Shown here piece after piece: positions 9,018-62,266 of a stretch of 64,000 nucleotides of DNA. The stretch is from Escherichia phage vB_EcoM_EP32a, in sequence record OR544954. One strand, written 5' to 3'. The notes beneath the pieces were generated by a model. That model saw nothing but the letters and a program-made list of their open reading frames with translations. It ran no database searches and was not told the DNA's origin. Both the position numbers and the translations under genes were made by a program. Numbering within the stretch: position 1 is the first letter of the stretch; every line of letters begins with the position of its first letter.

Positions 9018-9029
9018 GGACTGGTCTTA

Positions 9030-9280
9030 ATAAATCTTTACGATTTGTTAATATCCCCTTACATCACAGCAGAAACGGCGCACCGAATTATCGATTCGAG
9101 GAAATATCTTTGCCGTAAGCCGAGTAGCGTTTTTGACGGAACGTTCGGATATGGTCGAGATATGGCCTTTTAAAAATATTGAGTAGCGTCAACTGCTTAA
9201 TAACCGGGTTCGAATCCCGGCGTTTCGTACAAACACTTTGCCTTAGTAGGTGGAACCCCGACAAGGTTGCCGCAAGGCTT
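9030..9280 (+). ncRNA. candidate small stable RNA(s) (tRNA-like; analogous to T4 RNA C/D region)
   Basis: About 250 nt with no ORF next to the tRNAs; T-arm-like CCGGG-TTCGAAT-CCCGG at 9204-9220; repeated GAGTAGCGT at 9122 and 9181; ends at a terminator. Confidence 0.3.
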
Positions 9281-9308
9281 AGCCCCTTCCGAAAGGTCGG
9301 GGCTTTTT
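9281..9308 (+). terminator. rho-independent terminator
   Basis: GCCCCttccgaaaggtcGGGGC hairpin followed by TTTTT. Confidence 0.6.
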
Positions 9309-9320
9309 GAGGAAAATGTT

Positions 9321-34326: not shown

Positions 34327-36140
34327 AAATTGAAAAAGAAATTGAAGGATTAATTCATAAAACTAATAAAGATCTTTTGAACGAGAATGCTAATAAAGAT
34401 TCTCGTGTTTTTCCAACTCAACGGGACCTTATGGCTGGTATTGTGTCTAAGCACATTGCCAAAAATATGGTCCCGTCTTTTATTATGAAAGCACATGAAA
34501 GCGGAATTATCCATTTCCATGATATTGATTATTCCCCTGCTCTTCCATTTACTAATTGCTGTTTAGTAGATTTAAAAGGAATGCTTGAAAACGGGTTTAA
34601 GCTAGGTAATGCTCAAATTGAAACGCCTAAATCGATTGGTGTTGCTACTGCAATTATGGCACAAATTACCGCACAGGTTGCTTCACATCAGTACGGCGGA
34701 ACGACTTTTGCTAATGTAGATAAAGTACTTTCTCCTTATGTTAAACGCACCTATGCAAAACATATTGAGGATGCAGAAAAATGGCAAATTGCTGATGCGT
34801 TGAATTATGCCCAATCTAAAACAGAAAAAGACGTATACGATGCATTTCAAGCTTATGAGTATGAAGTAAATACTCTTTTTAGCTCAAACGGTCAAACGCC
34901 TTTTGTAACAATTACATTTGGTACTGGAACTGACTGGACTGAACGAATTATTCAGAAAGCAATTCTGAAAAATCGTATTAAAGGTCTTGGTCGTGATGGA
35001 ATAACTCCTATTTTCCCTAAACTTGTTATGTTCGTTGAAGAAGGTGTTAATCTTTATAAAGACGATCCGAACTATGATATTAAGCAGCTTGCGTTAGAAT
35101 GTGCAAGCAAAAGAATGTATCCTGATATTATTTCGGTTAAGAACAATAAAGCTATCACTGGTTCATCTATTCCTGTTTCTCCAATGGGTTGTCGTAGTTT
35201 CTTGAGTGTATGGAAAGATTCGACTGGAAATGAAATTCTTGATGGACGTAATAATCTTGGTGTTGTAACACTGAATCTTCCTCGTATTGCGTTAGATTCT
35301 TATATTGGAACACAATTCAATGAACAGAAATTTGTTGAGCTATTTAATGAACGAATGGATCTGTGTTTTGAAGCCTTGATGTGTAGAATTAGTTCTTTAA
35401 AGGGTGTTAAAGCAACTGTTGCTCCTATTCTTTACCAAGAAGGTGCATTCGGGGTTCGTCTTAAACCTGATGACGATATAATTGAGTTATTTAAAACCGG
35501 TAGAAGTTCAGTGTCCTTAGGATACATTGGTATTCACGAATTGAATATTCTTGTCGGTCGTGATATTGGACAAGAAATTTTAACTAAAATGAATGCTCAT
35601 CTTAAGCAGTGGACTGAAAGAACCGGTTTTGCTTTTAGCTTGTATTCTACTCCTGCTGAAAACCTGTGCTATCGCTTCTGTAAACTTGATACCGAGAAAT
35701 ATGGAAGTGTAAAAGATGTTACTGATAAAGGCTGGTACACTAATAGTTTCCATGTTTCAGTAGAAGAAAATATCACTCCGTTTGAAAAGATTTCTCGCGA
35801 AGCCCCATATCATTTCATTGCGACTGGCGGACATATTTCTTATGTTGAACTTCCAGATATGAAAAACAATTTAAAGGGTCTTGAGGCTGTATGGGATTAT
35901 GCTGCACAACATTTAGATTATTTTGGTGTTAATATGCCAGTAGATAAATGTTTTACATGTGGAAGTACTCATGAAATGACTCCTACTGAAACCGGATTTG
36001 TTTGTTCTATTTGTGGAGAAACTGACCCTAAAAAGATGAACACCATAAGAAGAACATGCGGTTATCTTGGAAATCCTAACGAACGCGGATTTAATCTCGG
36101 CAAAAATAAAGAAATCATGCATAGGGTTAAACACCAATGA
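34323..36140 (+). CDS. nrdD: anaerobic ribonucleoside-triphosphate reductase NrdD
   Basis: 605 aa as in T4 NrdD; C-terminal glycyl-radical region and Cys cluster CFTCGSTHEM...CSICGE; no intron. Confidence 0.9.
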   Translation: MKIEKEIEGLIHKTNKDLLNENANKDSRVFPTQRDLMAGIVSKHIAKNMVPSFIMKAHESGIIHFHDIDYSPALPFTNCCLVDLKGMLENGFKLGNAQIETPKSIGVATAIMAQITAQVASHQYGGTTFANVDKVLSPYVKRTYAKHIEDAEKWQIADALNYAQSKTEKDVYDAFQAYEYEVNTLFSSNGQTPFVTITFGTGTDWTERIIQKAILKNRIKGLGRDGITPIFPKLVMFVEEGVNLYKDDPNYDIKQLALECASKRMYPDIISVKNNKAITGSSIPVSPMGCRSFLSVWKDSTGNEILDGRNNLGVVTLNLPRIALDSYIGTQFNEQKFVELFNERMDLCFEALMCRISSLKGVKATVAPILYQEGAFGVRLKPDDDIIELFKTGRSSVSLGYIGIHELNILVGRDIGQEILTKMNAHLKQWTERTGFAFSLYSTPAENLCYRFCKLDTEKYGSVKDVTDKGWYTNSFHVSVEENITPFEKISREAPYHFIATGGHISYVELPDMKNNLKGLEAVWDYAAQHLDYFGVNMPVDKCFTCGSTHEMTPTETGFVCSICGETDPKKMNTIRRTCGYLGNPNERGFNLGKNKEIMHRVKHQ

Positions 36141-36607
36141 ATTATGATAGATTTTATCCTTGCGATTTTGTGAATGGCCCTGGTTGCAGGGTCGTTCTTT
36201 TCGTTACAGGTTGTTTGCATAAATGCGAAGGGTGTTATAATAAATCAACATGGAACGCTAGAAATGGTATTCCATTCACGGGTGAAACACTAGAGCAATT
36301 AATTGAATGTTTGAATAATGATTATATAGAAGGATTAACTATAACTGGAGGAGACCCTCTCTATCCCGATAACAGAGATGTTGTTCATTGCATTGCTCAA
36401 ACAGTAAAAAATCTTTATCCCAATAAAAGCATTTGGTTGTGGACAGGATATAAGTTTGAAGATATTAAACAACTAGAAATGCTTAAATATGTTGATGTTA
36501 TTATTGATGGGAAGTATGAGAAAAATCTTCCGACCAAAAAACTGTGGCGAGGATCAGATAATCAGCGACTTTGGTCAAATACCGATGGGGTGTGGAAACA
36601 TGATTAA
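36137..36607 (+). CDS. nrdG: anaerobic RNR activating enzyme NrdG (radical SAM)
   Basis: GCRVVLFVTGCLHKCEGCYN (CxxxCxxC); ATGA overlap with nrdD. Confidence 0.9.
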   Translation: MNYDRFYPCDFVNGPGCRVVLFVTGCLHKCEGCYNKSTWNARNGIPFTGETLEQLIECLNNDYIEGLTITGGDPLYPDNRDVVHCIAQTVKNLYPNKSIWLWTGYKFEDIKQLEMLKYVDVIIDGKYEKNLPTKKLWRGSDNQRLWSNTDGVWKHD

Positions 36608-36935: not shown

Positions 36936-37253
36936 ATGATTAGTTTTGAGCGGTATGTGGTAGAGAGTTGGAAAGGTTTTGATATGTTCGGTAATGACTA
37001 TTATTTTTACGAATGTAATCTGAACCCAAGCTTCTGGGCTGGACGTGAACGAGATCTCGAAGAAATTAATGCTCGTGCCGAATTGTTAGGTGAACTGCCT
37101 ACAGTTTATTTTACCTTTGATGAATCCGGCTTCGTTATCCAGGTTTATTTTCCTGAAGAAAACTCTGGCGAGGATTCTGTTAATCCTCCTTATTGGGCTT
37201 ACCAAGGAATTATTTCTCGTGGAACAAAACTCGAACTTAAAGAACAAGATTGA
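36936..37253 (+). CDS. hypothetical protein
   Basis: 105-aa ORF. Confidence 0.45.
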   Translation: MISFERYVVESWKGFDMFGNDYYFYECNLNPSFWAGRERDLEEINARAELLGELPTVYFTFDESGFVIQVYFPEENSGEDSVNPPYWAYQGIISRGTKLELKEQD

Positions 37254-37542
37254 AATTTATGGCATCCCTGAAGAAGTAGGACGTTGTCCGGGATGTTATA
37301 CTGTTACAAAACTTTTAAAGGAGCTCAATGCTCCTTATACATTTTATAAAGTCCTCACTAATAATGGTAAGATTGAATATGACCGTCCTTTAATCGTATC
37401 TCTTGCTAAACGTGCAGGATTCACTTCACTTAATATTCGTTATCCTGTCATATTTTTAAATGATAAGAAACAAAAGAATATTGCAGAGTTTAAAAAGACC
37501 TTGATTTCATTAGGATATGACTCTGATATCATAGAAGATTGA
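37219..37542 (+). CDS. nrdH: glutaredoxin-like NrdH (start uncertain; no in-frame ATG)
   Basis: KIEIYGIPEEVGRCPGCYTVTKLL... with CPGC active site; candidate start GTG 37219 after AAGGA, or ATT 37249; overlaps upstream ORF. Confidence 0.6.
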   Translation: MEQNSNLKNKIEIYGIPEEVGRCPGCYTVTKLLKELNAPYTFYKVLTNNGKIEYDRPLIVSLAKRAGFTSLNIRYPVIFLNDKKQKNIAEFKKTLISLGYDSDIIED

Positions 37543-39826: not shown

Positions 39827-40384
39827 ATGACTGGACAAAAACCTAAAAATAACTATGTGAATAATAAAGAGCTTCTCGCCGCTATAATCGAGTGGAAAAA
39901 GGAGCTCTTAAATAATAAAGACCCAAACAAAATTATTCGTCAGAATGATACCATCGGTTTAGCAATTATGCTTATCGCCGAAGGCCTGTCCAAACGTTTC
40001 AACTTTTCAGGATATACCCAGTCTTGGAAGCAGGAGATGATTGCAGATGGGATTGAAGCCTCTATTAAGGGACTTCATAATTTCGACGAAACTAAGTACA
40101 ATAACCCACATGCATACATAACTCGAGCTTGTTTTAATGCTTTTGTCCAACGTATCAAAAAAGAACGTAAGGAAGTTGCAAAGAAATATAGTTACTTCGT
40201 TCATAATGTCTACGACAGTCATGACGATGATATGGTAGCGTTGGTAGATGAAACGTTTATTCAAGACATCTACGATAAAATGACGCATTATGAAGAATCC
40301 GCTTATAAAGCTCCTGGGGCTGAAAAGAAGGAAGTTGTTAGCGATTCGCCTAGTTTGGATTTTTTATATGAGGATGACAATTGA
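39827..40384 (+). CDS. 55: late-transcription sigma factor gp55
   Basis: 185 aa as in T4 gp55; [26 protein letters not shown]... Confidence 0.85.
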
Positions 40385-41375: not shown

Positions 41376-42395
41376 ATGAAAATTTTGCACTTAGGCGACT
41401 TCCATATCGGAGTCAAACAAGATGACCCATGGGTTCAAGATATTCAACGTGATGGTATTCGTCAAGCAATTGAATACTCTAAGAAACACGGGATTAAAAC
41501 TTGGATTCAGTACGGTGATTGGTTTGACGTCCGTAAAGCAATAACACATCGTACGATGGAATTCAATCGTGAAATCGTTGATATGATTTCTAAAGCAGGC
41601 ATTCACGTTCATGTCACGATAGGAAACCATGACATGGCGTTTAAGAATACAATAACACCTAACACTGTTTCTGAATTGTTAACTCAATTTGAAAACTTTA
41701 CTATTTACGAACATCCAACTACTGTAGATTTTGACGGATGTCTGATTGATATCGTTCCATGGATGTGTGAAGAAAATACGGGTGAAATCTTAGAGCACAT
41801 CAAGACTTCTTCTGCGGCGTATTGTGTTGGGCACTGGGAATTAAATGGCTTCTATTTCTATAAAGGAATGAAGTCTCATGGGCTTGAACCTGATTTCTTA
41901 AAGACCTATAAACAAGTCTGGTCTGGCCACTTCCACACAATCTCTGAAGCTGCTAACGTCAAATATATTGGGACACCATGGACCCTTACTGCAGGCGATG
42001 AGAACGACCCGCGCGGATTCTGGGTATTTGACACTGATGTTGAACGTATGGAATTTATTCCTAATGAAACAACATGGCATCGACGAATCACTTATCCGTT
42101 TAAAGGCAAAATCAATTATTCTGATTATACTAATCTAGCCGTACGTGTTATAGTATCAGAAATTGATTCAGAGTTGACTAAGTTTGAATCTGAACTTGAA
42201 AAAGTAGTTCACTCTCTTCGTATGGTTTCTAAAGTTGATAACAGTGTTGAATCTGATGATGACCAGGAAATCGAGATTAAATCACTTCAAGATATCATTA
42301 AAGAATATATTGACGCGATTCCAGATATCTCAGACGAAGACAGAGAAGCGCTGGTTAAATATTCTAACGAACTTTATATTGAGGCAACACAATGA
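41376..42395 (+). CDS. 47: recombination endonuclease subunit gp47 (Mre11/SbcD-like)
   Basis: Phosphoesterase motifs LHLGDFH, GDWFD, GNHD, GHWE; 339 aa as in T4. Confidence 0.95.
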   Translation: MKILHLGDFHIGVKQDDPWVQDIQRDGIRQAIEYSKKHGIKTWIQYGDWFDVRKAITHRTMEFNREIVDMISKAGIHVHVTIGNHDMAFKNTITPNTVSELLTQFENFTIYEHPTTVDFDGCLIDIVPWMCEENTGEILEHIKTSSAAYCVGHWELNGFYFYKGMKSHGLEPDFLKTYKQVWSGHFHTISEAANVKYIGTPWTLTAGDENDPRGFWVFDTDVERMEFIPNETTWHRRITYPFKGKINYSDYTNLAVRVIVSEIDSELTKFESELEKVVHSLRMVSKVDNSVESDDDQEIEIKSLQDIIKEYIDAIPDISDEDREALVKYSNELYIEATQ

Positions 42396-47927: not shown

Positions 47928-50639
47928 ATGAAAGAATTTTACTTAACGGTTGAACAGATTGGTGATTCAATTTTTGAACGTTACATCGATTCTAATGGCC
48001 GTGAACGTACTCGTGAAGTAGAATATAAACCATCGCTGTTTGCTCATTGTCCAGAAAGTCAGGCTACGAAATATTTCGATATCTACGGTAAGCCGTGTAC
48101 TCGTAAGTTGTTCGCTAATATGCGTGATGCCTCCCAATGGATTAAACGCATGGAAGATATCGGACTTGAAGCACTTGGCATGGACGATTTCAAATTGGCG
48201 TATTTGTCTGACACTTATAACTATGAAATCAAATACGACCATACAAAAATTCGTGTGGCTAACTTCGACATCGAAGTAACATCTCCGGACGGGTTCCCTG
48301 AGCCGTCACAAGCAAAACATCCTATTGATGCTATCACCCATTATGACTCAATTGACGACAGGTTCTACGTATTTGATCTATTGAATTCTCCATATGGTAA
48401 TGTGGAAGAATGGTCTATCGAAATTGCAGCTAAGCTTCAAGAACAAGGTGGTGATGAAGTTCCATCCGAAATTATCGACAAAATCGTTTATATGCCGTTT
48501 GATAATGAAAAAGAATTATTGATGGAATATCTCAACTTCTGGCAACAGAAAACTCCTGTCATTTTGACTGGATGGAACGTTGAGTCATTTGATATTCCAT
48601 ATGTGTATAACCGAATCAAGAATATTTTTGGCGAATCTACTGCGAAACGTTTATCACCACATCGTAAAACTCGCGTTAAAGTTATCGAAAACATGTATGG
48701 TTCTCGTGAAATCATTACATTGTTCGGTATCTCTGTTCTTGATTACATTGACCTTTACAAAAAATTCTCTTTTACTAATCAACCGTCGTATTCTCTGGAT
48801 TACATTTCAGAATTTGAATTGAACGTTGGTAAACTGAAATATGACGGCCCTATTTCTAAGCTTCGTGAAAGCAATCACCAACGATATATTTCTTATAACA
48901 TTATCGACGTGTATCGTGTATTGCAAATTGATGCTAAGCGTCAGTTCATCAACTTGAGTTTGGACATGGGTTATTATGCTAAGATACAGATTCAATCTGT
49001 GTTTAGCCCAATTAAAACATGGGATGCTATTATTTTTAATAGCCTTAAAGAGCAGAACAAGGTGATTCCACAAGGTCGTTCTCACCCGGTTCAACCTTAT
49101 CCTGGCGCTTTTGTTAAGGAACCTATTCCAAATCGATACAAATATGTAATGAGTTTCGACCTTACATCTCTGTATCCAAGTATTATTCGCCAAGTGAATA
49201 TTAGCCCAGAAACAATAGCAGGAACGTTTAAAGTAGCTCCATTGCATGATTATATTAACGCTGTTGCTGAACGTCCTTCTGATGTGTACAGTTGCTCTCC
49301 TAACGGCATGATGTATTATAAAGACCGTGATGGTGTAGTTCCAACTGAAATCACTAAAGTCTTTAATCAACGTAAAGAACATAAAGGTTATATGCTTGCG
49401 GCTCAACGTAATGGTGAAATAATTAAAGAGGCGTTGCATAATCCTAATCTTTCTGTTGACGAACCATTAGATGTTGATTATCGTTTCGACTTTAGCGATG
49501 AGATTAAAGAAAAGATTAAAAAGTTGTCTGCTAAATCTCTTAATGAAATGTTGTTTAGAGCTCAACGTACTGAAGTTGCAGGTATGACTGCCCAAATTAA
49601 CCGTAAATTGCTTATCAACTCACTTTATGGTGCACTTGGCAACGTTTGGTTCCGTTATTACGATTTGCGTAATGCTACTGCAATCACAACATTTGGTCAA
49701 ATGGCTTTACAGTGGATTGAACGTAAAGTTAATGAATATCTGAATGAAGTTTGTGGCACAGAAGGTGAAGCTTTCGTTCTTTATGGTGATACAGACTCTA
49801 TTTACGTATCTGCTGATAAAATTATCGATAAGGTTGGTGAATCTAAATTCCGTGATACCAACCATTGGGTAGACTTCTTAGATAAGTTTGCACGTGAACG
49901 TATGGAACCAGCTATTGATAGAGGTTTCCGTGAAATGTGTGAATACATGAACAATAAACAACACTTAATGTTCATGGACCGAGAAGCTATCGCTGGTCCT
50001 CCGCTTGGTTCTAAAGGTATTGGTGGATTCTGGACTGGCAAGAAACGTTATGCATTAAACGTGTGGGATATGGAAGGCACTCGTTACGCTGAGCCTAAAC
50101 TCAAAATCATGGGTCTCGAGACTCAGAAATCTTCGACTCCTAAAGCAGTACAGAAAGCTCTTAAAGAATGTATTCGTCGTATGCTTCAAGAAGGTGAAGA
50201 ATCATTACAAGAATATTTTAAAGAGTTTGAAAAAGAATTCCGTCAATTGAATTATATTAGCATCGCGTCGGTATCTTCTGCGAATAACATTGCTAAATAT
50301 GACGTAGGTGGATTCCCTGGTCCCAAATGCCCGTTCCATATTCGTGGAATTCTGACGTATAACCGGGCTATCAAAGGTAATATTGATGCTCCACAAGTTG
50401 TAGAAGGTGAAAAAGTATATGTTCTGCCTTTACGTGATGGAAACCCATTCGGTGATAAATGTATCGCATGGCCTTCTGGTACTGAAATCACAGATTTAAT
50501 TAAAGACGACGTACTTCATTGGATGGACTACACTGTTCTCCTTGAGAAGACATTTATTAAACCACTTGAAGGATTCACATCAGCAGCGAAACTCGATTAC
50601 GAGAAGAAAGCATCTCTGTTCGATATGTTCGATTTTTGA
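47928..50639 (+). CDS. 43: DNA polymerase gp43 (family B)
   Basis: 903 aa; exonuclease motifs FDIEV, YNIIDV; polymerase motifs DLTSLYPSII, KLLINSLYGALG, YGDTDS; long stretches match the RB69 gp43 sequence as I recall it. Confidence 0.97.
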   Translation: MKEFYLTVEQIGDSIFERYIDSNGRERTREVEYKPSLFAHCPESQATKYFDIYGKPCTRKLFANMRDASQWIKRMEDIGLEALGMDDFKLAYLSDTYNYEIKYDHTKIRVANFDIEVTSPDGFPEPSQAKHPIDAITHYDSIDDRFYVFDLLNSPYGNVEEWSIEIAAKLQEQGGDEVPSEIIDKIVYMPFDNEKELLMEYLNFWQQKTPVILTGWNVESFDIPYVYNRIKNIFGESTAKRLSPHRKTRVKVIENMYGSREIITLFGISVLDYIDLYKKFSFTNQPSYSLDYISEFELNVGKLKYDGPISKLRESNHQRYISYNIIDVYRVLQIDAKRQFINLSLDMGYYAKIQIQSVFSPIKTWDAIIFNSLKEQNKVIPQGRSHPVQPYPGAFVKEPIPNRYKYVMSFDLTSLYPSIIRQVNISPETIAGTFKVAPLHDYINAVAERPSDVYSCSPNGMMYYKDRDGVVPTEITKVFNQRKEHKGYMLAAQRNGEIIKEALHNPNLSVDEPLDVDYRFDFSDEIKEKIKKLSAKSLNEMLFRAQRTEVAGMTAQINRKLLINSLYGALGNVWFRYYDLRNATAITTFGQMALQWIERKVNEYLNEVCGTEGEAFVLYGDTDSIYVSADKIIDKVGESKFRDTNHWVDFLDKFARERMEPAIDRGFREMCEYMNNKQHLMFMDREAIAGPPLGSKGIGGFWTGKKRYALNVWDMEGTRYAEPKLKIMGLETQKSSTPKAVQKALKECIRRMLQEGEESLQEYFKEFEKEFRQLNYISIASVSSANNIAKYDVGGFPGPKCPFHIRGILTYNRAIKGNIDAPQVVEGEKVYVLPLRDGNPFGDKCIAWPSGTEITDLIKDDVLHWMDYTVLLEKTFIKPLEGFTSAAKLDYEKKASLFDMFDF

Positions 50640-50679: not shown

Positions 50680-51315
50680 ATGAAAACTACTCCTATTACT
50701 ATCGCTATTGACGCAATCATAAAACAAGCTTCTTCTTTGGCCGCTATGGCCAAAGTAATTAGTCAAAACCCTGCTCGTTATAATGCTATTCTAGAAACTC
50801 TTCGACGCCCTGGACTTAGTAATTATGAAAGCCGGGTAATTATTACAGGTGTTGGTAAGAATGCTAATATCGCAACTAAAGCTTCCGAGACTTTTGCTTC
50901 ACTAGGTATTCCTAGCATGTATTTGAACACCGGGCATTATTCTCATGGTGATGCAGGATTTATTGCGCCTAATGATGTGTTGATTCATATTAGTCGTTCT
51001 GGTAAAACTGAAGAAATGATAGGTGTTGCTAAACATCTTCGTATGATTCGTCCTCAGGTTAAACAGATTCTGTTACATTGTAACCCAGACATTCCACAAG
51101 AATACGAAGCTCTTTTTGATTATACGTTCTGTACCGGTATCGCGGTAGAAGTTGACGAGAACTCTTTGGCTCCGACTATGTCCACTACATTGTTGTTAGC
51201 GCTTATCGATACGTTTGCTATCAACCTTTCGTCTGAACGCGGATTTACCTCTAATGACTTCCTTAAGTTCCACCCTGGTGGTGCACTAGGTGCCATGTTA
51301 CGAGGCGAACAATGA
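50680..51315 (+). CDS. SIS-domain sugar phosphate isomerase, KdsD/GutQ-type arabinose-5-phosphate isomerase-like
   Basis: VIITGVGKNANIATKASETFASLGIP, HGDAGF, ISRSGKTEE, LAPTMSTT, RGFTSNDFLKFHPGGALG align with the KdsD SIS domain by eye; 211 aa, single SIS domain. Confidence 0.8.
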   Translation: MKTTPITIAIDAIIKQASSLAAMAKVISQNPARYNAILETLRRPGLSNYESRVIITGVGKNANIATKASETFASLGIPSMYLNTGHYSHGDAGFIAPNDVLIHISRSGKTEEMIGVAKHLRMIRPQVKQILLHCNPDIPQEYEALFDYTFCTGIAVEVDENSLAPTMSTTLLLALIDTFAINLSSERGFTSNDFLKFHPGGALGAMLRGEQ

Positions 51316-51443
51316 AAGCAATAACAATAGGACTTTTACTATTGATGCTTGTCATGACTATCTACTGGAGCTTAATGGCTCCAGTAATGATTCCAACACT
51401 TGTAATTGGATGGATTATGATTGGACTACAAGCAAAGTATGAA

Positions 51444-51468
51444 TGCTTTATCTAGAATAGTGTACAAT
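51444..51468 (+). promoter_or_regulatory. middle promoter (MotA box aaTGCTTTA, -10 TACAAT)
   Basis: MotA box 51444-51450, TACAAT at 51463-51468, 29 nt before the ATG at 51497. Confidence 0.45.
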
Positions 51469-51496
51469 ACTCCTACTTACCAATGAGGACTTCAAC

Positions 51497-53182
51497 ATGA
51501 AAAAAGCTGTTATTCTTGGTGCTGGACTGGCAACTCGTTTGTATCCAATAACGCATCATATTCCTAAGGTGCTTGTTAACTATAAACAAGACACTATTCT
51601 GAGCAATTTGTATACAATTTATTCTGACCTTGGCGCAGATGAAATTATTGTAGTAGTTCATTCAAAATTTGCTGAAACCGTTCGAGCTTATTGTGAGCAA
51701 GAAGGGTTCAATGTGACTATTCGTACAGTTGATGAAGCGTATGGTTCTGCTTATGCTCTTGCTAAATTATACAAAGATTTAGATGGCCATAACGTAATTG
51801 TTAACTGGTGTGATATTATTCCTGATTTTGGTTCATGGTCTTGGAATGTTAACGCAATCTATGTTAAGGGTGATGAATGTCGATATAATTTCGACGGTGA
51901 AAATATCACTAACGTAGGTTCAACGGGTGGTAATGTTGTAGGAATTTACCAGTTCAAAGACTGGGAATTCTATATGGGTTCTACTGATGAGGAAATTCAT
52001 GAATACTGCAAAGGACGTGATTTCGTAGAATTCCTTTACGGGAGTGCATTCAATAAATCAGAGCTTATGAATCTAATTGATTTAGGTGATATGCCTAAAC
52101 TTGAAAAAGCTCATGAAGTTCGTGAACTTAATCGTAGTTTTAATGCAGTTGAAATTGGTGAAGAAACTGTAACTAAATTCGCATTAACCGAACAGGGTCG
52201 AGCTCTTCAGAAAGATGAGATTTCATGGTATCTTAAAGTGAAATCAGATTCAGTTCCTCAGTTAGTTTCTGTTAATGAAAATAACTTTGAAATGGAACGC
52301 ATTAAAGGTAAGCCGGCATTTGAATATATTAAATCCAAATCAAGTCTTGCTCGTCCACAAATTGTTGATGCAATTTTAGATGCACTGAAATTCAGCACAG
52401 ACACTTATTTTGTAAGTCCTGAAACTGTTCGTCGTGATTTCACTAAAGAATTCTATACGAAAGTTATTGATCGTTGTGAAAGCATTCAGCCATTGATTGA
52501 TTCATTTGGTAAAATCACACATGTGAACTACACTAAGATTGGACGTCTGAAGCCAATGCTGAAACAAGCTTTAGAACACCTTATTCGTTATCATAACCGT
52601 TCTCAGGGACAGTACTCTGTTATTCACGGTGACCCGAACTTCAGTAATACTATGATTACTGATAATGGCGAAGTCAAGTTTATCGACCCTCGTGGATATT
52701 TTGGTGAAACCAAGATTTACGGGCCAAAATTGTATGACGAAGCTAAAGTGCTTTATGCTGTTTCAGGTTATGATGAATTCAATGCTAATCCAACCTGGGG
52801 ACAGTTTACTATTGATGAAACAACTTGTAATGTGACTATTAACATCAATCCATTAGTTTACAAATATGGAAAGATGAGTTCGTTTAACGAGTATCATCAT
52901 TTGGCAGTGGCAATTATCTGGATTGCATTAGGTGGTTATTTCAAGAATAATCCACTTAAAGCGGTAGCCGCATATTATAAAGGTATGGAACTTCTGACTA
53001 AGCAATTACGTAACATGGGCCGTGTACTTCAGGACGGCTCTATTAGTTATGACGTAGCAGAACCTGTAACGGCTACTCTGATTACAAAAAATCCTGGTAA
53101 ATGGGTACTAACTGATAAAGAAACTGGTGTTTCCTATCGTCCAATCGGTGGCGATATCACTCATCAATGGGAACGAATCTAA
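51497..53182 (+). CDS. bifunctional sugar-1-phosphate nucleotidyltransferase (N-terminal) / APH-ChoK-fold kinase (C-terminal)
   Basis: N-terminus AVILGAGLATRLYPITHHIPKVLV (G-x-G-x-x-R, LicC/MurU-like); C-terminus VIHGDPNFSNTMITDNGEVKFIDPRG (HGDxxxxN catalytic loop plus D of the APH/choline-kinase fold); 561 aa. Confidence 0.75.
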   Translation: MKKAVILGAGLATRLYPITHHIPKVLVNYKQDTILSNLYTIYSDLGADEIIVVVHSKFAETVRAYCEQEGFNVTIRTVDEAYGSAYALAKLYKDLDGHNVIVNWCDIIPDFGSWSWNVNAIYVKGDECRYNFDGENITNVGSTGGNVVGIYQFKDWEFYMGSTDEEIHEYCKGRDFVEFLYGSAFNKSELMNLIDLGDMPKLEKAHEVRELNRSFNAVEIGEETVTKFALTEQGRALQKDEISWYLKVKSDSVPQLVSVNENNFEMERIKGKPAFEYIKSKSSLARPQIVDAILDALKFSTDTYFVSPETVRRDFTKEFYTKVIDRCESIQPLIDSFGKITHVNYTKIGRLKPMLKQALEHLIRYHNRSQGQYSVIHGDPNFSNTMITDNGEVKFIDPRGYFGETKIYGPKLYDEAKVLYAVSGYDEFNANPTWGQFTIDETTCNVTININPLVYKYGKMSSFNEYHHLAVAIIWIALGGYFKNNPLKAVAAYYKGMELLTKQLRNMGRVLQDGSISYDVAEPVTATLITKNPGKWVLTDKETGVSYRPIGGDITHQWERI

Positions 53183-53568
53183 TGCACCGTGTAGAAAACA
53201 TGCTTAATCTTTGTTTTGATGTCGACGATTGTATAACAGAGTGGAATAACAATCGTGATTACGTGAACTTCAAGCCAGACGTCGAAATGGTGACTGCCAT
53301 TAATGCCCTGTATGATGCAGGGCATACCATAACGCTTTACACTGCTCGTGGTATGAAGTCAGTAGGTCCTGGACGTATAGCAATTGATATTCTCCCAAGT
53401 CTGATTCAGAACTTGGCAAACATTGGCTTGAAGTACCATAATTTGCTAACACATAAACCAGTATATGATTGGATTATCGACGACAAAGCTATGCGTCCTG
53501 ACGAATTCAAAGCTCTTATGAATAAAGGCGAATTCGAAACATTTAAATCGTATAAACCGAATCTATAA
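53182..53568 (+). CDS. HAD-superfamily phosphatase-like protein
   Basis: Motif I-like FDVDDCIT, motif II ITLYTARG, motif III/IV HKPVYDWIIDDKA; start taken at the ATG overlapping the upstream stop. Confidence 0.55.
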   Translation: MHRVENMLNLCFDVDDCITEWNNNRDYVNFKPDVEMVTAINALYDAGHTITLYTARGMKSVGPGRIAIDILPSLIQNLANIGLKYHNLLTHKPVYDWIIDDKAMRPDEFKALMNKGEFETFKSYKPNL

Positions 53569-53628
53569 TAATTTAAGTAAGACCTGCAAAAAAAAACCAT
53601 CGCGTCAATTAACGTGAGATGCAAAAAA

Positions 53629-54789
53629 ATGAATACTTTTAAAATCGGAACGAATTTTGATTTAGCTCTTCTTGATAAAATCGTAGAGCTCAATAAAACT
53701 TATCCTAATAGCTTGATAAACGAAGTATACGGCTCTACAAGAGAAATGGCTTTTGTAGCAGCCAGACCTGATTTTAGGCTTCCTGACGTTGACAAAAAGA
53801 TGTTAGAAGATTACGTTAAACGTTGTAACGAATTAGGTATTTGCTTTAACTATACACTCAACACGATAAATCCTGGTTCAAAAAGAGAACTAGTTGAGTG
53901 GAAGAAGAAAGCTATTCAGGATTATGTTCAGTATCTTTGGTCAATAGGCGTATGGCGTATTACTATCGCTAACCCTGTTGTTATGGAAATTGTTCGTGAA
54001 GTCAATAAAGACATTGAGATTGAAGTTTCAACAATTCTACATGTCGATGCTGTAACTCAAATAAAATACTTACATGACCAATACAATATCAAAAAGGTCT
54101 GCTGTGGAATTCATAAGAACCGTTCAGTTTCTTTCCTGAAGCGTGCAGCAGAGTTTTGCAATAAGAACAATATAATATTTGAAGTTCTTGTAAATGAGTT
54201 CTGTTCTAATGCTGGTAAAGGGTATACAACACATTGTAGCTATCGTGACTCTTGCTATATTTTCCATAGTACTGATGTTACAGCTGATGATGCTAAATCC
54301 TTAAACGGGTATCCTATGCAGCACTGTATTAAAGCTCGTGATACAGACCCATTTAACTGGTTGAGAACTCGTTTTGTTCGTCCTCAAGATTTGAAACTTT
54401 ATAATGATATTGGTATCACTCAATTCAAAGTTTCAGGACGTACAGGTAGCACAGACTACATTTTGAAAGTTCTTGAAGCATACGCTTCTGAAAAGTTTGA
54501 AGGTAATTTGTTAGAACTGTGGAAGCCTTTAGAGACTATTTTCACTCTTGAAAACGAAACTGAGTTTTCACATACAGTAAATATTGAAACCTCTTTGTTA
54601 GATGGCTTTTTAGAAAAAAGGTGGTTCAGACATCCAGATTTCGATTGTGCTAATGAAATCTGCGGGACGACGTGTACATATTGTGAAAGATATTATAAAC
54701 GTCAATTATCTAAAAACGGGTTAGCAGAAAACTCTATATCTATTATTGATATAACTAACTCTGATGACGCTTTGAGGTACCCGGAATGA
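53629..54789 (+). CDS. hypothetical Cys-cluster protein (possibly peptidase-U32-like)
   Basis: 386 aa; NEFCSNAGKGYTTHCSYRDSC resembles the U32 signature E-x-F-x2-G-[SA]-h-C-x4-G-x-C; C-terminal C-x4-C-x3-C-x2-C; assignment tentative. Confidence 0.45.
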   Translation: MNTFKIGTNFDLALLDKIVELNKTYPNSLINEVYGSTREMAFVAARPDFRLPDVDKKMLEDYVKRCNELGICFNYTLNTINPGSKRELVEWKKKAIQDYVQYLWSIGVWRITIANPVVMEIVREVNKDIEIEVSTILHVDAVTQIKYLHDQYNIKKVCCGIHKNRSVSFLKRAAEFCNKNNIIFEVLVNEFCSNAGKGYTTHCSYRDSCYIFHSTDVTADDAKSLNGYPMQHCIKARDTDPFNWLRTRFVRPQDLKLYNDIGITQFKVSGRTGSTDYILKVLEAYASEKFEGNLLELWKPLETIFTLENETEFSHTVNIETSLLDGFLEKRWFRHPDFDCANEICGTTCTYCERYYKRQLSKNGLAENSISIIDITNSDDALRYPE

Positions 54790-55025
54790 TTTCTAGAAAA
54801 ACTTTTAATCACCGACTTAATGAAGAGATTTTGACTACGAAACTGAACACTAACGAACAAATTCTTAAAAAGGCCCTGATGGGCCTGTTTGAAATTAAAG
54901 CGGCTAAAGTGATTAAAGAACCTGTTCAATTGGAATACTACGCTGATGCATTTCTTCATAGTGTTCTTGGAAGTATCGATGCTGAAGCTTTACGTTATAT
55001 CAACATTGTCAAGAAATTCAAATAA
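54786..55025 (+). CDS. hypothetical protein
   Basis: 79-aa ORF ATGA-coupled to the preceding gene; not membrane-like, so unlikely to be Imm. Confidence 0.4.
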   Translation: MISRKTFNHRLNEEILTTKLNTNEQILKKALMGLFEIKAAKVIKEPVQLEYYADAFLHSVLGSIDAEALRYINIVKKFK

Positions 55026-55066
55026 GCTTTACGAATTGAGTATATAATAATTGTATTGAGGTAAAC

Positions 55067-55783
55067 ATGGGAAAACATAACACAATGAAATATATCAAAG
55101 CCGCAGATTTTCAAACCGCATTTAAAGCAGTCAATCGTGAAATTTTAGAAAACCCGGAATTCGTAACTGATTCTCGTATTGGACGTTGTAATGAAATTGG
55201 GTCTATGACAGTAGTTGTTGACACTCCATCATCATTCAAAATGACAGACCCACGTATTAACCGCATCTCTTATGAATATGCCGAAGACTTCTGGAAGTTT
55301 ATGATTTCTGGTGGTACCAACGCAGAAGAAGCGTTTAAGGCATATCCTAATGTCGCTAAATTTATTTCTAAACCAAAATCAGATGTTTTGCCGGCGAACT
55401 TCAACACTTTCTATGGTCCTCGCATTGCGGCCCAGCTACCGGCTCTTCTAAAAGAACTTAAAGAGAAGCCTAACTCTCGAAGAGTTGTGTTCCAAATTCT
55501 AGAAAGTTCTGATCAGGCTTTGCTTGATTCGGACGAAACGCTTGAATATCCATGTACTGACTCAGTGACTTATTATATTCGTGATGGTAAGCTTTATACC
55601 CACTGTCATATGCGTTCCCAGAACTGTGCTGTTGTTATGCAGTTGGATTTTTATCTCCAAGGAAAATTACTTCATTATATCGCTAACGAATGTGGTGTAG
55701 AAGTTGGTGATTATACTCATACCATGGTAAGTGCCCATGTGTTTGAACGTGATTTTGATTATGTTAAAGGATTCCTTGACTAA
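55067..55783 (+). CDS. 42: dCMP hydroxymethylase gp42 (thymidylate-synthase fold)
   Basis: NSRRVVFQI, YPCTDSVTYYIRDGKLYTHCHMRSQN, VSAHVFERDF correspond to T4 gp42 motifs (DSRRG, CTNTVQYLIRD, SLHVYSRHF); 238 aa. Confidence 0.8.
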   Translation: MGKHNTMKYIKAADFQTAFKAVNREILENPEFVTDSRIGRCNEIGSMTVVVDTPSSFKMTDPRINRISYEYAEDFWKFMISGGTNAEEAFKAYPNVAKFISKPKSDVLPANFNTFYGPRIAAQLPALLKELKEKPNSRRVVFQILESSDQALLDSDETLEYPCTDSVTYYIRDGKLYTHCHMRSQNCAVVMQLDFYLQGKLLHYIANECGVEVGDYTHTMVSAHVFERDFDYVKGFLD

Positions 55784-56682
55784 TGGCTATTTTCCGCGTA
55801 CCTATCTTGAGTATGCGGTCTTATGAAACTGGACAGTATGCTATCCTTAAGGATGGCAACTTCCAACTTCATTTGCACCGTGCTAATCCAGGTGATGTGA
55901 TTACATATCCACGTAATGCATCTGATATTAAAGAATGCGAACGTCTTTTTCCGGAATTTAAGTTTGTTCCATTATGGTATAAAGATAACGCGTATAACAC
56001 TCGTAAATATTTCTGGTCTGAAAATGAATTTGTGGTTGATTCATTAATTGCTTATTATGATTGTGATTTTCTAATCACAGATATCACCGGATATGATGGC
56101 GCTTTTGACGTAGAATTCAATTTCAATATCACTGCAGACCCTAATAAACCACGTTTTTATATTGATGAATTCTTAAAAACCGACATGTTGTCTGTTAATC
56201 GTTCACTTCAAACTACTGTGTTGAATGAACGTCAAAAAGAAGTGCTGGTTAACGCAGGTGCAGATGGTAATAAGATTATCGTAACACAGAAAGTTATACG
56301 TCCTTCCGTCATGCAGCGTCTTGTAGGTGATTTGGCTCCTATTCATCTAGATGGTATTTTTCATCCATTTCGAATTAGTGACCCATGCTATCGTTTTGAA
56401 CAAGTGGTTGAATGCGCAATTCAATTAGGTCAACCGCTTTATATAACTGATCCAAATAATAGTTTCGACAGAAATAAGTATCCTGAAGAAGCGCTGATTC
56501 GAATTTTTAATCCAACTAAAACTGAGTACTATCAAATTCTTAAAGGACGTCCGAAGATTCAATATTTCGAAAATCCTGAAGAAGTATTCCATCCAGGTCT
56601 TGGTGAGTTCATCTACTTTAATGCTTTAATTTCTTCACCGTATAATATACCTAAATACGAAGATGTCGTAATCGAGGAATAA
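55783..56682 (+). CDS. hypothetical protein in the beta-glucosyltransferase slot (candidate hmC-DNA glycosyltransferase)
   Basis: 299-aa ORF ATGG-coupled to gene 42, between 42 and uvsX where T4 has beta-gt; no similarity to T4 beta-gt by eye; function from position only. Confidence 0.45.
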   Translation: MAIFRVPILSMRSYETGQYAILKDGNFQLHLHRANPGDVITYPRNASDIKECERLFPEFKFVPLWYKDNAYNTRKYFWSENEFVVDSLIAYYDCDFLITDITGYDGAFDVEFNFNITADPNKPRFYIDEFLKTDMLSVNRSLQTTVLNERQKEVLVNAGADGNKIIVTQKVIRPSVMQRLVGDLAPIHLDGIFHPFRISDPCYRFEQVVECAIQLGQPLYITDPNNSFDRNKYPEEALIRIFNPTKTEYYQILKGRPKIQYFENPEEVFHPGLGEFIYFNALISSPYNIPKYEDVVIEE

Positions 56683-56683
56683 A

Positions 56684-57232
56684 ATGGCTAAAATTATTTT
56701 AGTAGACGGGCCTGATAATGCTGGTAAAACAACTTTCATTAATGACATAATGGAAATTAGTGAAAGATATGTAAAGATTGATTTCCCTAAACGAACAGTT
56801 GATGGGCGTTTCGATGTTAAGTCTCGAAATGAAGTTGGCTGTTTCGAAACGATGTTGAATTATTTAGACCCTACTAAGATTTATCTATTAGACCGTGGAT
56901 ATATTAGTAACTGGGTTTATGGACGTATTCGACAAGATGCGGACTCGGTTCTTGACGTTTATGAACAGGATTATGTTCGTCTTTGCCAAAACCATGATGT
57001 GTTCACAATTATTTTAACCCGTAACGAAATGACTGAAAGTTTTGAAGACGACCTTATTACTTTGTCTTCATTCGGTTTTAATACAGTCATTTCACATTTT
57101 GAAGAGTTTGCAATTCATAACAAAATCCAAACGTATCAATTACTTAATCATGATGGTTCTAACAAAGTTATAGGATTTAATGCAAGTGAACGTAATAATT
57201 TGATTACAGAAATCATTAAATGGGCTCGTTAA
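56684..57232 (+). CDS. P-loop kinase, thymidylate-kinase/dNK-like fold
   Basis: IILVDGPDNAGKTTFIND, LLDRGYISNWVYG (DR motif); 182 aa; separate from gene 1. Confidence 0.55.
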   Translation: MAKIILVDGPDNAGKTTFINDIMEISERYVKIDFPKRTVDGRFDVKSRNEVGCFETMLNYLDPTKIYLLDRGYISNWVYGRIRQDADSVLDVYEQDYVRLCQNHDVFTIILTRNEMTESFEDDLITLSSFGFNTVISHFEEFAIHNKIQTYQLLNHDGSNKVIGFNASERNNLITEIIKWAR

Positions 57233-57330: not shown

Positions 57331-58503
57331 ATGTCTGATTTAAAATCTCGTCTGATTAAAGCTTCTACTTCTAAAATGACTGCAGACTTGACTAAGTCTA
57401 AGCTGTTTAATAATCGTGATGAAGTCCCTACTCGTATTCCGATGTTGAATATTGCATTAGGTGGTGCTCTGAATGCAGGATTGCAATCAGGCTTGACTAT
57501 TTTTGCTGCTCCTTCTAAACACTTTAAAACGTTGTTTGGACTAACTATGGTTGCAGCATATATGAAGAAATATAAAGATGCAATTTGTTTGTTCTATGAT
57601 TCAGAATTTGGTGCTTCAGAATCTTATTTTCGTTCAATGGGTGTTGATTTAGACCGTGTAGTTCATACACCAATTCAGTCAGTAGAACAACTTAAAGTTG
57701 ATATGACTAATCAGCTTGACGCGATTGAACGCGGTGATAAAGTTATTATCTTTATCGATTCAATCGGTAATACTGCATCTAAGAAAGAAACTGAAGATGC
57801 ATTGAACGAGAAAGTTGTAGGTGATATGTCTCGTGCTAAGGCACTTAAATCTCTTTTCCGTATTGTGACCCCGTATCTGACTATTAAAGATATTCCGTGT
57901 GTTGCAATTAACCATACCGCAATGGAAATTGGCGGATTGTATCCTAAAGAGATTATGGGCGGTGGTACAGGTATTCTTTATTCTGCTAACACTGTATTCT
58001 TTATCTCTAAACGTCAGGTTAAAGAAGGTACAGAATTGACCGGTTATGACTTCACGTTGAAAGCAGAAAAATCTCGTACAGTTAAAGAGAAATCTACTTT
58101 CCCGATCACGGTTAATTTCGATGGTGGTATCGACCCATTCAGTGGCTTGCTAGAAATGGCAACTGAAATCGGTTTTGTGGTTAAGCCTAAAGCCGGGTGG
58201 TATGCTCGTGAATTCCTTGACGAAGAAACAGGTGAAATGATTCGTGAAGAGAAATCGTGGCGTGCTAAAGCTACTGATTGTGTAGAATTCTGGGGACCGT
58301 TGTTTAAACACAAGCCTTTCCGTGACGCAATTGAAACTAAATATAAACTAGGTGCTATCTCTTCTATTAAAGAAGTTGATGACGCTGTTAACGACCTTAT
58401 TAATTGCAAAGCAACAACTAAAGTTCCGGTTAAAACTTCTGATGCTCCGTCTGCAGCAGATATAGAAAACGACCTTGACGAAATGGAAGATTTCGATGAA
58501 TAA
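57331..58503 (+). CDS. uvsX: recombinase UvsX (RecA-like)
   Basis: MSDLKSRLIKASTSKMTADLTKSKLFN...; Walker A AAPSKHFKT; 390 aa (T4 391 aa). Confidence 0.95.
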   Translation: MSDLKSRLIKASTSKMTADLTKSKLFNNRDEVPTRIPMLNIALGGALNAGLQSGLTIFAAPSKHFKTLFGLTMVAAYMKKYKDAICLFYDSEFGASESYFRSMGVDLDRVVHTPIQSVEQLKVDMTNQLDAIERGDKVIIFIDSIGNTASKKETEDALNEKVVGDMSRAKALKSLFRIVTPYLTIKDIPCVAINHTAMEIGGLYPKEIMGGGTGILYSANTVFFISKRQVKEGTELTGYDFTLKAEKSRTVKEKSTFPITVNFDGGIDPFSGLLEMATEIGFVVKPKAGWYAREFLDEETGEMIREEKSWRAKATDCVEFWGPLFKHKPFRDAIETKYKLGAISSIKEVDDAVNDLINCKATTKVPVKTSDAPSAADIENDLDEMEDFDE

Positions 58504-61587: not shown

Positions 61588-61956
61588 ATGAAAAAATTAA
61601 TCGCTTTAGCAATGGTATTTGGATTAACCGGATGTGGTGCCCATGGCTTTATTCCTAATAACGTTGGCCAACTGATTTACAATCCGAATGTTAAACAGTA
61701 CAACCAACCTAAAGTTGAAGTGGAAGACCCGGTTACTGTAGGTAATCGAATGATTCAAGCCGATGCTCATGCTCAACGTTATCGTGATTCCGATACTGTA
61801 GCTATGTCAAAAGAACAGCGCGTTAAAGAACATTGCTTACAGGCTACTGAAATCGCATTCATTCGCTATGTTGAAACAACTGGTAAAGAGCCTACCCAGA
61901 AACAAATCGCGAATAACTATGTCCAGTGTATTGAACGTTTAAACAAATTTAATTAA
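61588..61956 (+). CDS. lipoprotein
   Basis: Signal peptide with lipobox MKKLIALAMVFGLTGC. Confidence 0.6.
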   Translation: MKKLIALAMVFGLTGCGAHGFIPNNVGQLIYNPNVKQYNQPKVEVEDPVTVGNRMIQADAHAQRYRDSDTVAMSKEQRVKEHCLQATEIAFIRYVETTGKEPTQKQIANNYVQCIERLNKFN

Positions 61957-62017
61957 TTGGTTTACACCAAAGTTAAAATAAGATACTATAAACATAACAA
62001 ATCAAGAGGAAATTAAC

Positions 62018-62266
62018 ATGGAATTATTCGTAGCTAGTTCAGTAGCAGTTTTAATCGCAGGTATTGGTTCAATCATCATTTACATGTTGCCTTGGGTAAT
62101 CGCACTTATTCGTGGCACAAAAAGCACAACAGCAATCTTCTTTGTATCTTTACTCTTTAACTGGACGATGGTTGGTTGGATTGGAACTTTAATTTGGTCT
62201 ATCGTTGCCGAAAAGAAATCGGCTCAGCAGCCTCAACAAGTAATTATTATTCGCGAAAAAGAATAA
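62018..62266 (+). CDS. small two-TM membrane protein
   Basis: Two hydrophobic segments; 82 aa. Confidence 0.5.
   Translation: MELFVASSVAVLIAGIGSIIIYMLPWVIALIRGTKSTTAIFFVSLLFNWTMVGWIGTLIWSIVAEKKSAQQPQQVIIIREKE

Follow-up and report, generated by a model that had tools for sequence, protein, structure and literature searches.

Phage T4 and the RB69-like phages both use a ThyA-superfamily enzyme to alter deoxycytidylate (dCMP) before replication and GT-B enzymes to glycosylate the DNA afterwards, and in both cases the system lies in the same neighborhood, between the DNA polymerase gene (gp43) and uvsX. The chemistry of the two systems differs. T4 gp42 has Asp169 and adds CH2OH from folate, with host UDP-glucose as the sugar source, whereas the RB69-type enzyme has Asn169 and adds OH from O2 with a flavin, and its arabinofuranose is made by phage enzymes. 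Arabinose was found in RB69 DNA by Thomas et al. in 2018, who proposed arabinosyl-5-hydroxymethylcytosine (arabinosyl-hmC) and already named the pol-uvsX module as the likely source of UDP-arabinose (PMC6024577). Lee et al. (NAR 2026, PMC13326640) have since revised this chemistry to arabinose ether-linked to 5-hydroxycytosine and showed that arabinosyl-5-hydroxy-dC replaces dC in RB69 virion DNA; nuclear magnetic resonance (NMR) and mass spectrometry (MS) gave an ether link and no methylene, and the older structure is superseded. In Mosigvirus NP, 5-ara-dC and 5-ara-ara-dC were confirmed and the hmC structure was termed erroneous (PMC13390438). Here, we examine the corresponding gene block (positions 50680 to 57232) in a 64,000-nucleotide stretch of Escherichia phage vB_EcoM_EP32a (sequence record OR544954), hereafter the window, and in particular a gene within the block whose product belongs to the U32 family.

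The block shares 97.5% DNA identity with RB69 ORF055c-045c, its proteins are 91 to 100% identical to their RB69 counterparts, and it is 98% identical to at least 150 Mosigvirus genomes. The RB69 gp45-gp55 and phage HY126 Afh clusters have the same gene content and gene order between gp43 and uvsX. The RB69 reference record splits two genes (046/047 and 052/053) that are each one intact open reading frame (ORF) here, in agreement with PMC13326640, where these splits are put down to sequencing errors. Given this degree of sequence identity, the block is very probably the Mosigvirus (RB69-type) cluster that replaces cytosine with mono- and diarabinosylated 5-hydroxycytosine. A previous sequence-only reading of the window had likewise recognized a sugar-nucleotide and DNA glycosylation module, which is supported here as a UDP-arabinose module specific to RB69-like phages, and the seven ORFs that it named are all present on the plus strand, where it had placed them and with the folds it had assigned. 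Some caution is nonetheless in order. The modification chemistry of vB_EcoM_EP32a is read across from near identity to RB69 and HY126, the sugar-branch activities are known through the account of He et al. 2026 in PMC13326640, and Table 1 of PMC13326640 keeps an older order of steps through free arabinose. In addition, first-transferase activity on 5-hydroxycytosine DNA could not be demonstrated in vitro for the DLP3 homolog of the glycosyltransferase in the block (PMC13326640).

The module is already published (Thomas et al. 2018; Lee et al., NAR 2026, which cites He et al., Nat Chem Biol 2026, and Mahler et al., Cell Host Microbe 2025), and its identification in this phage is a re-discovery of a known system. 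The module explains why RB69 is genetically isolated from the other T-even phages, why it resists restriction enzymes and CRISPR, and why it is sensitive to some type IV systems. The remaining interest lies in the sub-module formed by U32, an adjoining ORF of 79 amino acids (aa), and chorismate mutase; what is new here is the U32 ORF as an accessory gene with chorismate mutase or 3-deoxy-D-arabino-heptulosonate 7-phosphate (DAHP) synthase neighbors.

The U32 gene (53629-54789, plus strand; RB69 ORF050c) encodes 386 aa from its conserved ATG. The sequence-only reading had described a 386-aa, cysteine-rich protein and left its role blank; size and composition stand, and the protein can now be placed in a family by its match to Pfam Peptidase_U32 (PF01136; 42.2 bits against a cut-off of 22.4). 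An AlphaFold2 (AF2) model, with a predicted local distance difference test (pLDDT) score of 89, shows the TIM barrel of the U32 family, and hhalign comparison with E. coli TrhP, RlhA, UbiU, and UbiV gave a probability of 96.1% (E value of 3.3e-9 over 211 columns). Plain MAFFT alignment with these four paralogs misaligned the cysteine region, and profile-profile comparison alone worked. The viral proteins differ from the E. coli paralogs in forming their own subfamily, with ten invariant cysteines that are differently spaced (positions 163, 182, 197, 208, 214, 238, 345, 350, 354, and 357). Of the cysteines in the [4Fe-4S] motif, only the first two have counterparts in the hhalign comparison, C208 and C214 (CX5C), and the subfamily has an extra C-terminal CX4CX3CX2C motif. 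With these residues, binding of an Fe-S cluster by the viral protein is plausible.

UbiU/V, TrhP, and RlhA have been implicated in hydroxylation that depends on prephenate rather than O2 and requires Fe-S clusters (PMC10990095, PMC6599085). Their targets are ubiquinone precursors for UbiU/V, U34 of tRNA (giving 5-hydroxyuridine, ho5U) for TrhP, and C2501 of 23S rRNA (giving 5-hydroxycytidine, ho5C) for RlhA, and prephenate is the oxygen donor for the characterized U32 proteins (PMC10990095, PMC6599085). The pairs TrhO/TrhP and UbiI-H-F/UbiU-V each combine an O2-using enzyme with a U32 Fe-S protein, and the viral module resembles them, possibly with the same hydroxylation of a pyrimidine at C5. 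In the viral case, the O2-dependent partner would be the ThyA homolog and the presumed substrate a deoxynucleotide or DNA. The E. coli link between U32 proteins and prephenate is echoed by the chorismate mutase genes that adjoin viral U32.

The stop of the U32 gene is overlapped by the start of the 79-aa ORF (54786-55025, plus strand; RB69 ORF049c), which matches PHROG 8601 (2.8e-49) and has no Pfam or NCBIfam match. Homologs of this ORF were seen solely in U32-bearing modules. In relatives, a homolog of the 79-aa ORF occupies this slot with a chorismate mutase gene after it, or the two are fused. We considered the 79-aa ORF as a degenerate chorismate mutase and rejected this assignment because Yersinia phages have the homolog together with a separate chorismate mutase, and because the ORF has no match to Pfam CM_2.

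Several phages carry the module with neither U32 nor the 79-aa ORF, namely, Acinetobacter phage AbTZA1, Pseudomonas phage PspYZU05, and the E. coli Dhakavirus IME08, and U32 is therefore accessory and dispensable for the pathway. We found U32 in 221 phage records, in every case at an identity of at least 80%. For these matches, the listed hosts (ten genera) belong to the Enterobacterales or are Shewanella and do not include Acinetobacter; the nucleotidyltransferase/kinase fusion gene of the module occurs in 368 records, 57 of them from Acinetobacter phages. Where U32 is present, it is the most conserved member of the module, with 82% identity between E. coli and Shewanella phages compared to 71% for the hydroxylase.

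In 54 records of cultured phages, U32 and the ThyA-like gene are separated by a chorismate mutase gene (Pfam CM_2, scores of 35.9 and 44.6 bits with a cut-off of 27). The slot is occupied in this way in phages of Yersinia, Serratia, Erwinia, Klebsiella, Enterobacter, Edwardsiella, Proteus, Providencia, Morganella, and Shewanella, and a small chorismate mutase gene was found in most non-Mosigvirus Straboviridae with U32. Such CM_2 genes lie at 9008-9313 in locus L072 and at 8962-9306 in L077, and others are found in L073, L074, L078, L081, and L082. In Serratia phage CHI14, the chorismate mutase gene overlaps both of its neighbors.

U32 homologs of 44 to 58% identity are common in uncultured viral contigs, and we counted the gene neighbors in 31 such loci. 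The family of the 299-aa glycosyltransferase of the block (here, the GT299 family) is a neighbor in 22 of them, nucleotidyltransferase/kinase and KdsC-like HAD genes in 15 each, and a DAHP synthase in 12; rarer neighbors are an isomerase (9 loci), a Tmk-like kinase (6), and a dCMP deaminase (6). Several of the 12 DAHP synthases are fused to a C-terminal chorismate mutase. DAHP synthases of these contigs (L040:8411-9433, L041:9-971, L042:7302-8357, L051:11085-12203, L010:9145-9891, and L030:9384-10130) are of the Bacillus/Bacteroidota type, and their nearest named cellular homologs, at 43 to 46% identity, come from Muribaculaceae, Bacteroidaceae, Flavobacterium, and Marivirga. We also considered the DAHP_synth_1 neighbor as a Kdo8P synthase that uses arabinose 5-phosphate (Ara5P), and rejected this candidate: DAHP synthase models score 3 to 4 times higher, and several copies carry a chorismate mutase domain. 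Searches with three ThyA queries (E value of 1e-3 or less) found no ThyA-family gene within 8 to 10 kb of U32 in the 31 loci.

We also collected 58 viral loci anchored on the GT299 family; the counts are approximate. About 36 have only the ThyA-like gene, about 16 have both this gene and U32, about 4 have only U32, and 2 have neither. In the four U32-only loci, U32 directly abuts the transferase, and the two loci with neither gene are cut by a contig end right beside it. Every uncut locus has the ThyA-like gene, U32, or both within 10 kb of the transferase, mostly directly adjoining. In one 230-kb contig from IMG/VR (L114, 9124-14686), a ThyA-like gene (35% identical) and U32 (48%) flank GT299-like and nucleotidyltransferase/kinase genes. 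This contig does not resemble Straboviridae, so the arrangement with both hydroxylases also occurs beyond the T4-like phages.

Because the phage hydroxylase known so far depends on O2, we considered U32 as an anoxic alternative. On balance, we lean toward U32 being a prephenate-dependent, O2-independent C5 hydroxylase of deoxycytidylate or DNA cytosine. This proposal draws on the prephenate-making enzymes found beside U32 in two unrelated viral lineages, on the either/or/both pattern of U32 and the ThyA-like gene beside the same transferase family, and on the absence of U32 from phages of strict aerobes. It draws further on family membership with UbiU/V, TrhP, and RlhA and on the presence of nrdG in the phage. 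The Tmk-like kinase and dCMP deaminase neighbors in U32-only loci suggest that the substrate is a mononucleotide.

Under this proposal, there would be two routes to 5-hydroxycytosine, the flavin- and O2-dependent ThyA homolog in air and U32 in the anoxic gut. U32 would act as an accessory second hydroxylase, with prephenate in place of O2, and would keep up the supply of 5-hydroxycytosine while the facultatively anaerobic host grows without O2. The translationally coupled 79-aa ORF may assist it. In related phages, the phage's own chorismate mutase would feed the U32 route, and uncultured phages, probably of Bacteroidota, would supply a DAHP synthase-chorismate mutase and may use the U32 route alone. 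If U32 is such a hydroxylase, it would account for the full DNA modification of gut phages without O2 and would be the first member of the U32 family with a link to DNA. The substrate may then be a small soluble nucleotide, offering a possible in vitro assay to the U32/prephenate field, and the presence of the gene would serve as a rule by which 5-hydroxypyrimidine DNA could be predicted for uncultured phages without a ThyA homolog. No paper that connects U32, prephenate, or chorismate mutase with the modification of phage DNA came up in our literature search, which did not cover He et al. 2026 or Mahler et al. 2025. The U32 gene goes unmentioned in a transposon-mutagenesis preprint on phages LC53 and Bas46 and in the Thanatos paper.

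Several observations weigh against a hydroxylase role for U32. Pairwise BLAST of the protein against E. coli RlhA and UbiU gave insignificant results, the canonical CX6CX15CX3-4C spacing of the [4Fe-4S] motif is not kept, and direct in vitro hydroxylation by any U32 protein has not yet been demonstrated (PMC10990095). Dhakaviruses infect E. coli without a U32 gene. Mosigviruses, including the window, have only the 79-aa ORF, and no chorismate mutase, in the slot between U32 and the ThyA-like gene. The homologs of the DAHP synthase-chorismate mutase proteins indicate hosts among the Bacteroidota, a group of both aerobes and anaerobes, and the U32-only contigs could carry a ThyA-like gene at a distance of more than 10 kb.

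Another possibility is that U32 is a redox helper of the ThyA-like enzyme, for example, an Fe-S flavin (heterocycle) reductase that provides reduced flavin mononucleotide (FMN). FMN is held loosely by the 5-hydroxy-dCMP synthase, which would require flavin in reduced form, the ten invariant cysteines suggest electron-transfer clusters, and U32 is always near the ThyA-like gene in Straboviridae; moreover, Table 1 of PMC13326640 lists RB69 gp50 (U32), without discussion, as a "sugar or heterocycle reductase." We consider this role doubtful given the viral loci that have U32 and no ThyA-family gene within 10 kb, the Acinetobacter phage modules that work without U32, and the chorismate mutase and DAHP synthase neighbors, for which flavin reduction offers no obvious role.

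It is unlikely that U32 acts in the sugar branch, tailoring the pentose phosphate or UDP-pentose as a reductase, an epimerase, or some other enzyme. The arabinose in RB69 DNA is plain, Acinetobacter phages form 5-hydroxycytosine with one, two, or three arabinosyl units in the absence of U32 (PMC13326640), and the formation of UDP-arabinofuranose (UDP-Araf) from Ara5P is credited to AfhE and AfhF alone, with no part assigned to a U32 protein, as far as the work is recounted in PMC13326640. The gene does sit between the HAD phosphatase gene and the base-branch genes, and in at least nine uncultured loci it comes after the isomerase and nucleotidyltransferase/kinase genes; TIM-barrel folds are also common among sugar enzymes. 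However, U32 is also found beside genes for dCMP deaminase, Tmk, and DNA polymerase in places that have no arabinose genes nearby, and it adjoins a UDP-galactopyranose mutase/TAGT set. A function outside DNA modification, as a protease or in host takeover or anti-defense, would make U32 a passenger in a plastic region. The family is named for collagenase-like peptidases, GenBank records say "peptidase," and the pol-uvsX interval is known for frequent gene turnover (PMC6024577), but we find this very unlikely for a gene that is conserved above every other module member between E. coli and Shewanella phages, overlaps the ORF downstream, and is linked again and again, in unrelated viral lineages, to GT299, nucleotide-metabolism genes, and chorismate mutase.

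Some uncultured loci place U32 in other gene contexts. In L012 (6474-10486 and 13073-14179), the order is Tmk-like kinase, GT299-like gene, U32, TAGT-family glycosyltransferase, and dUTPase/DCD, with a UDP-galactopyranose mutase gene nearby. No arabinose genes were seen around U32 in this locus, which suggests U32-linked hypermodification with a different sugar. A second U32 paralog, 22% identical, adjoins a radical SAM/SPASM gene in L008 (13227-14360 and 12160-13185) and also occurs in L009. Around the L008 paralog lie genes for a nucleoside 2-deoxyribosyltransferase, a deoxynucleoside kinase, a 5'-nucleotidase, and a PnuC-like transporter. L007 likewise has a radical SAM/SPASM gene near U32.

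Turning to the base branch, the ThyA-family protein of the block (55067-55783, plus strand; 238 aa), an ortholog of RB69 gp48 (ORF048c), is, judged by its sequence, a 5-hydroxy-dCMP synthase and not a dCMP hydroxymethylase. It matches Pfam Thymidylat_synt (56.9 bits, 2.3e-15) and is 99.2% identical to RB69 gp48, approximately 97 to 98% identical to the solved structures 9IQC/9IR2/9IQU, and 25% identical to T4 gp42. Among the 60 solved-structure matches listed of 106 in total, bacterial ThyA structures are present and those of T4 gp42 are not. The alignment shows D169N (E. coli ThyA numbering), with MRSQN here, MRSND in T4 gp42, and QRSCD in E. coli ThyA, and the protein also carries N177D and L143E. 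D169N is a marker of 5-hydroxy-dCMP synthase activity, and RB69 gp48 makes 5-hydroxy-dCMP, takes up 18O from O2, and co-purifies with FMN (PMC13326640). The 99% identity to RB69 gp48 together with D169N indicates that the acceptor is 5-hydroxycytosine rather than 5-hmC and that this is not an hmC locus. The sequence-only reading had assumed the opposite on both counts, taking the gene for gene 42 at the hmC locus and the product for arabinosyl-hmC; the base in RB69 is arabinosyl-5-hydroxycytosine (PMC13326640, PMC13390438).

We give almost no credence to a scheme in which a gp42-type dCMP hydroxymethylase makes hmC and an NDP-pentose, formed via free pentose, is transferred onto it: the 2018 proposal based on arabinose in RB69 DNA (PMC6024577), the position of a gene with a Thymidylat_synt match where T4 has gene 42, and the N177D and L143E changes shared with hydroxymethylases are all in its favor, but they are set against D169N, the low identity to T4 gp42, near identity to an enzyme that produces 5-hydroxy-dC with 18O from O2 and flavin, and the ether link without methylene (PMC13326640) that made the hmC assignment erroneous (PMC13390438). 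A correction is also needed in GenBank, where many records mislabel the ThyA-like gene "dCMP hydroxymethylase" and where the base in question is 5-hydroxycytosine.

The ThyA-like enzyme would hydroxylate dCMP at C5 with O2 and a flavin cofactor, as shown for RB69 gp48, after which kinases would raise 5-hydroxy-dCMP to the triphosphate and the phage polymerase would incorporate the product. The block ends with a thymidylate-kinase-like P-loop kinase (56684-57232, plus strand; 182 aa; RB69 ORF045c), a fold that had been called correctly from the sequence. It matches PHROG 761, "thymidylate kinase" (1.7e-45), has a weak NCBIfam dTMP kinase match, and carries the P-loop GPDNAGKT. Genes of its family accompany GT299 members at viral loci of the ThyA type and of the U32 type alike. 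Elsewhere in the window, homologs of nrdG (79% identical to T4), which encodes the anaerobic ribonucleotide reductase activase, and of nrdH (87%) lie at 36137-36604 and 37240-37539, and with them the phage appears equipped for DNA precursor synthesis without O2.

The genes for a UDP-arabinose route, encoding an isomerase, a bifunctional fusion, and a phosphatase, are all present and adjacent, at 98 to 100% identity to RB69. The first is the SIS-domain protein (50680-51315, plus strand; 211 aa), which is 98.1% identical to RB69 ORF055c. It matches Pfam SIS (39.8 bits, 4.8e-10) and, over the SIS part only, NCBIfam KpsF/GutQ (5.2e-32) and KdsD (2.1e-30), and among solved structures it comes closest to single-domain arabinose-5-phosphate isomerases (3etn, 6.8e-25, followed by 5uqi and 2xhz). 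The SIS catalytic domain is its best sequence match to B. fragilis 3etn, E. coli 5uqi, and KdsD/GutQ. The protein is predicted to be an arabinose-5-phosphate isomerase that converts ribulose-5-P to arabinose-5-P. The isomerase class proposed for it by the sequence-only reading stands, but the likeness to KdsD/GutQ does not extend over their full length: those enzymes have SIS plus tandem CBS domains, span approximately 320 to 330 aa, and send their product to 3-deoxy-D-manno-octulosonate (Kdo), whereas the 211-aa protein has no CBS domains, is matched by the NCBIfam KdsD/GutQ models at only profile positions of about 41 to 202, and would send its product to UDP-arabinose.

The nucleotidyltransferase/kinase fusion (51497-53182, plus strand; 561 aa; HY126 AfhE type) is 99.7 to 100% identical to the two RB69 half-ORFs, ORF053c and ORF052c. 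Its N-terminal half matches Pfam NTP_transferase (38.4 bits, 1.3e-9), NCBIfam sugar-1-P nucleotidyltransferases, and the solved relative 1jyk (LicC). The kinase half (residues 308-409) has sub-threshold matches to the APH, fructosamine-kinase, and EcKL families and contains the HGDxxxxN motif (HGDPNFSN). Profile and structure searches have thus placed both the SIS protein and the fusion in the families expected of them. The HAD-superfamily phosphatase (53167-53568, plus strand; 133 aa; HY126 AfhF type), 98.4% identical to RB69 ORF051c, has a DVDD motif, matches PHROG 1238 (8.1e-43), and has as its top NCBIfam match, below the cut-off, the capsule biosynthesis phosphatase TIGR01689 (4.6e-13); its phosphatase class had also been predicted correctly.

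According to what PMC13326640 relates of He et al. 2026, HY126 AfhE converts Ara5P to Ara-1,5-P2 and later forms UDP-Araf, while the HAD protein AfhF strips the 5-phosphate from Ara-1,5-P2. With the kinase step placed before the phosphatase step, there is no free pentose intermediate, and the order assumed in the sequence-only reading, in which the phosphatase releases free pentose before the kinase acts, is reversed. By analogy, the SIS isomerase would supply arabinose-5-P from ribulose-5-P, the kinase domain of the fusion would convert it to arabinofuranose-1,5-bisphosphate, the HAD phosphatase would yield Ara-1-P, and the nucleotidyltransferase domain would join Ara-1-P and UTP to give UDP-arabinofuranose. 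In the IMG/VR loci L086-L099, a trio of ThyA-like (54 to 62% identical), GT299-like (38%), and Tmk-like (about 31%) genes is kept, and no isomerase, fusion, or HAD gene was found near it. These phages may place a host-supplied sugar on 5-hydroxycytosine.

The 299-aa ORF (55783-56682, plus strand; RB69 ORF047c and 046c), left unassigned in the sequence-only reading, has a GT-B fold in an AF2 model with a pLDDT of 93.7. Solved-structure sequence searches gave no match for either this ORF or the U32 protein; entry 9IQZ, which neighbors 9IQC/9IR2/9IQU, is labeled as a glycosyltransferase of phage HY126. The ORF is a GT-B glycosyltransferase, and we predict it to be the base-proximal (first) arabinosyltransferase. 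It would attach the first arabinose to the 5-hydroxyl, and a second transferase of the RB69 ORF003c type, encoded outside the window, would add the next. RB69 ORF003c itself has no tblastn match in the window, whose coverage does not include the RB69 locus of this gene (rIIA to the topoisomerase gene).

The sequence-only reading was also right that the T4 glucosyltransferases are missing. In tblastn searches of the window, T4 alpha-gt gave nothing significant (best E value of 0.015) and T4 beta-gt gave no match at an E value of 1 or less. Homologs of gp55 (39827-40372) and gp47 (41376-42392), located by tblastn with the T4 proteins, are approximately 1 kb apart, which leaves no room for the 1.2-kb alpha-gt.

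The interval between gp43 (47928-50639) and uvsX (57331-58503) is filled by nine closely packed ORFs on the plus strand, four of which score above Pfam gathering cut-offs (SIS, NTP_transferase, Peptidase_U32, and Thymidylat_synt). A scan for promoters and terminators found 21 sites compared with 26.7 expected by chance and thus no excess. The U32 ORF has an in-frame GTG at 53614, which would give 391 aa, and the likelier start is the conserved ATG at 53629 (MNTFK). Just upstream of this ATG, poly-A runs of nine and seven (A9 and A7) lie within 53588-53628, and the A7 run has one base more than would follow from the RB69 annotation. This one-base difference accounts for the different upstream U32 starts annotated in the two records, GTG 53614 here and MQKM... 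in RB69.

Between the isomerase and fusion genes sits a strongly hydrophobic ORF of 47 aa (51312-51455, plus strand). It is 97% identical to its RB69 homolog, ORF054c, and is an annotated coding sequence in phage AlbertHofmann. In T4, the intergenic region between 42 and imm, where no gene is annotated, holds a 28-aa match to this ORF. T4 carries imm and imm.1 between genes 43 and 42, whereas in vB_EcoM_EP32a the homologs of imm.1 (32% identical to T4) and imm (64%) lie at 61594-62263, approximately 4 kb downstream of uvsX.

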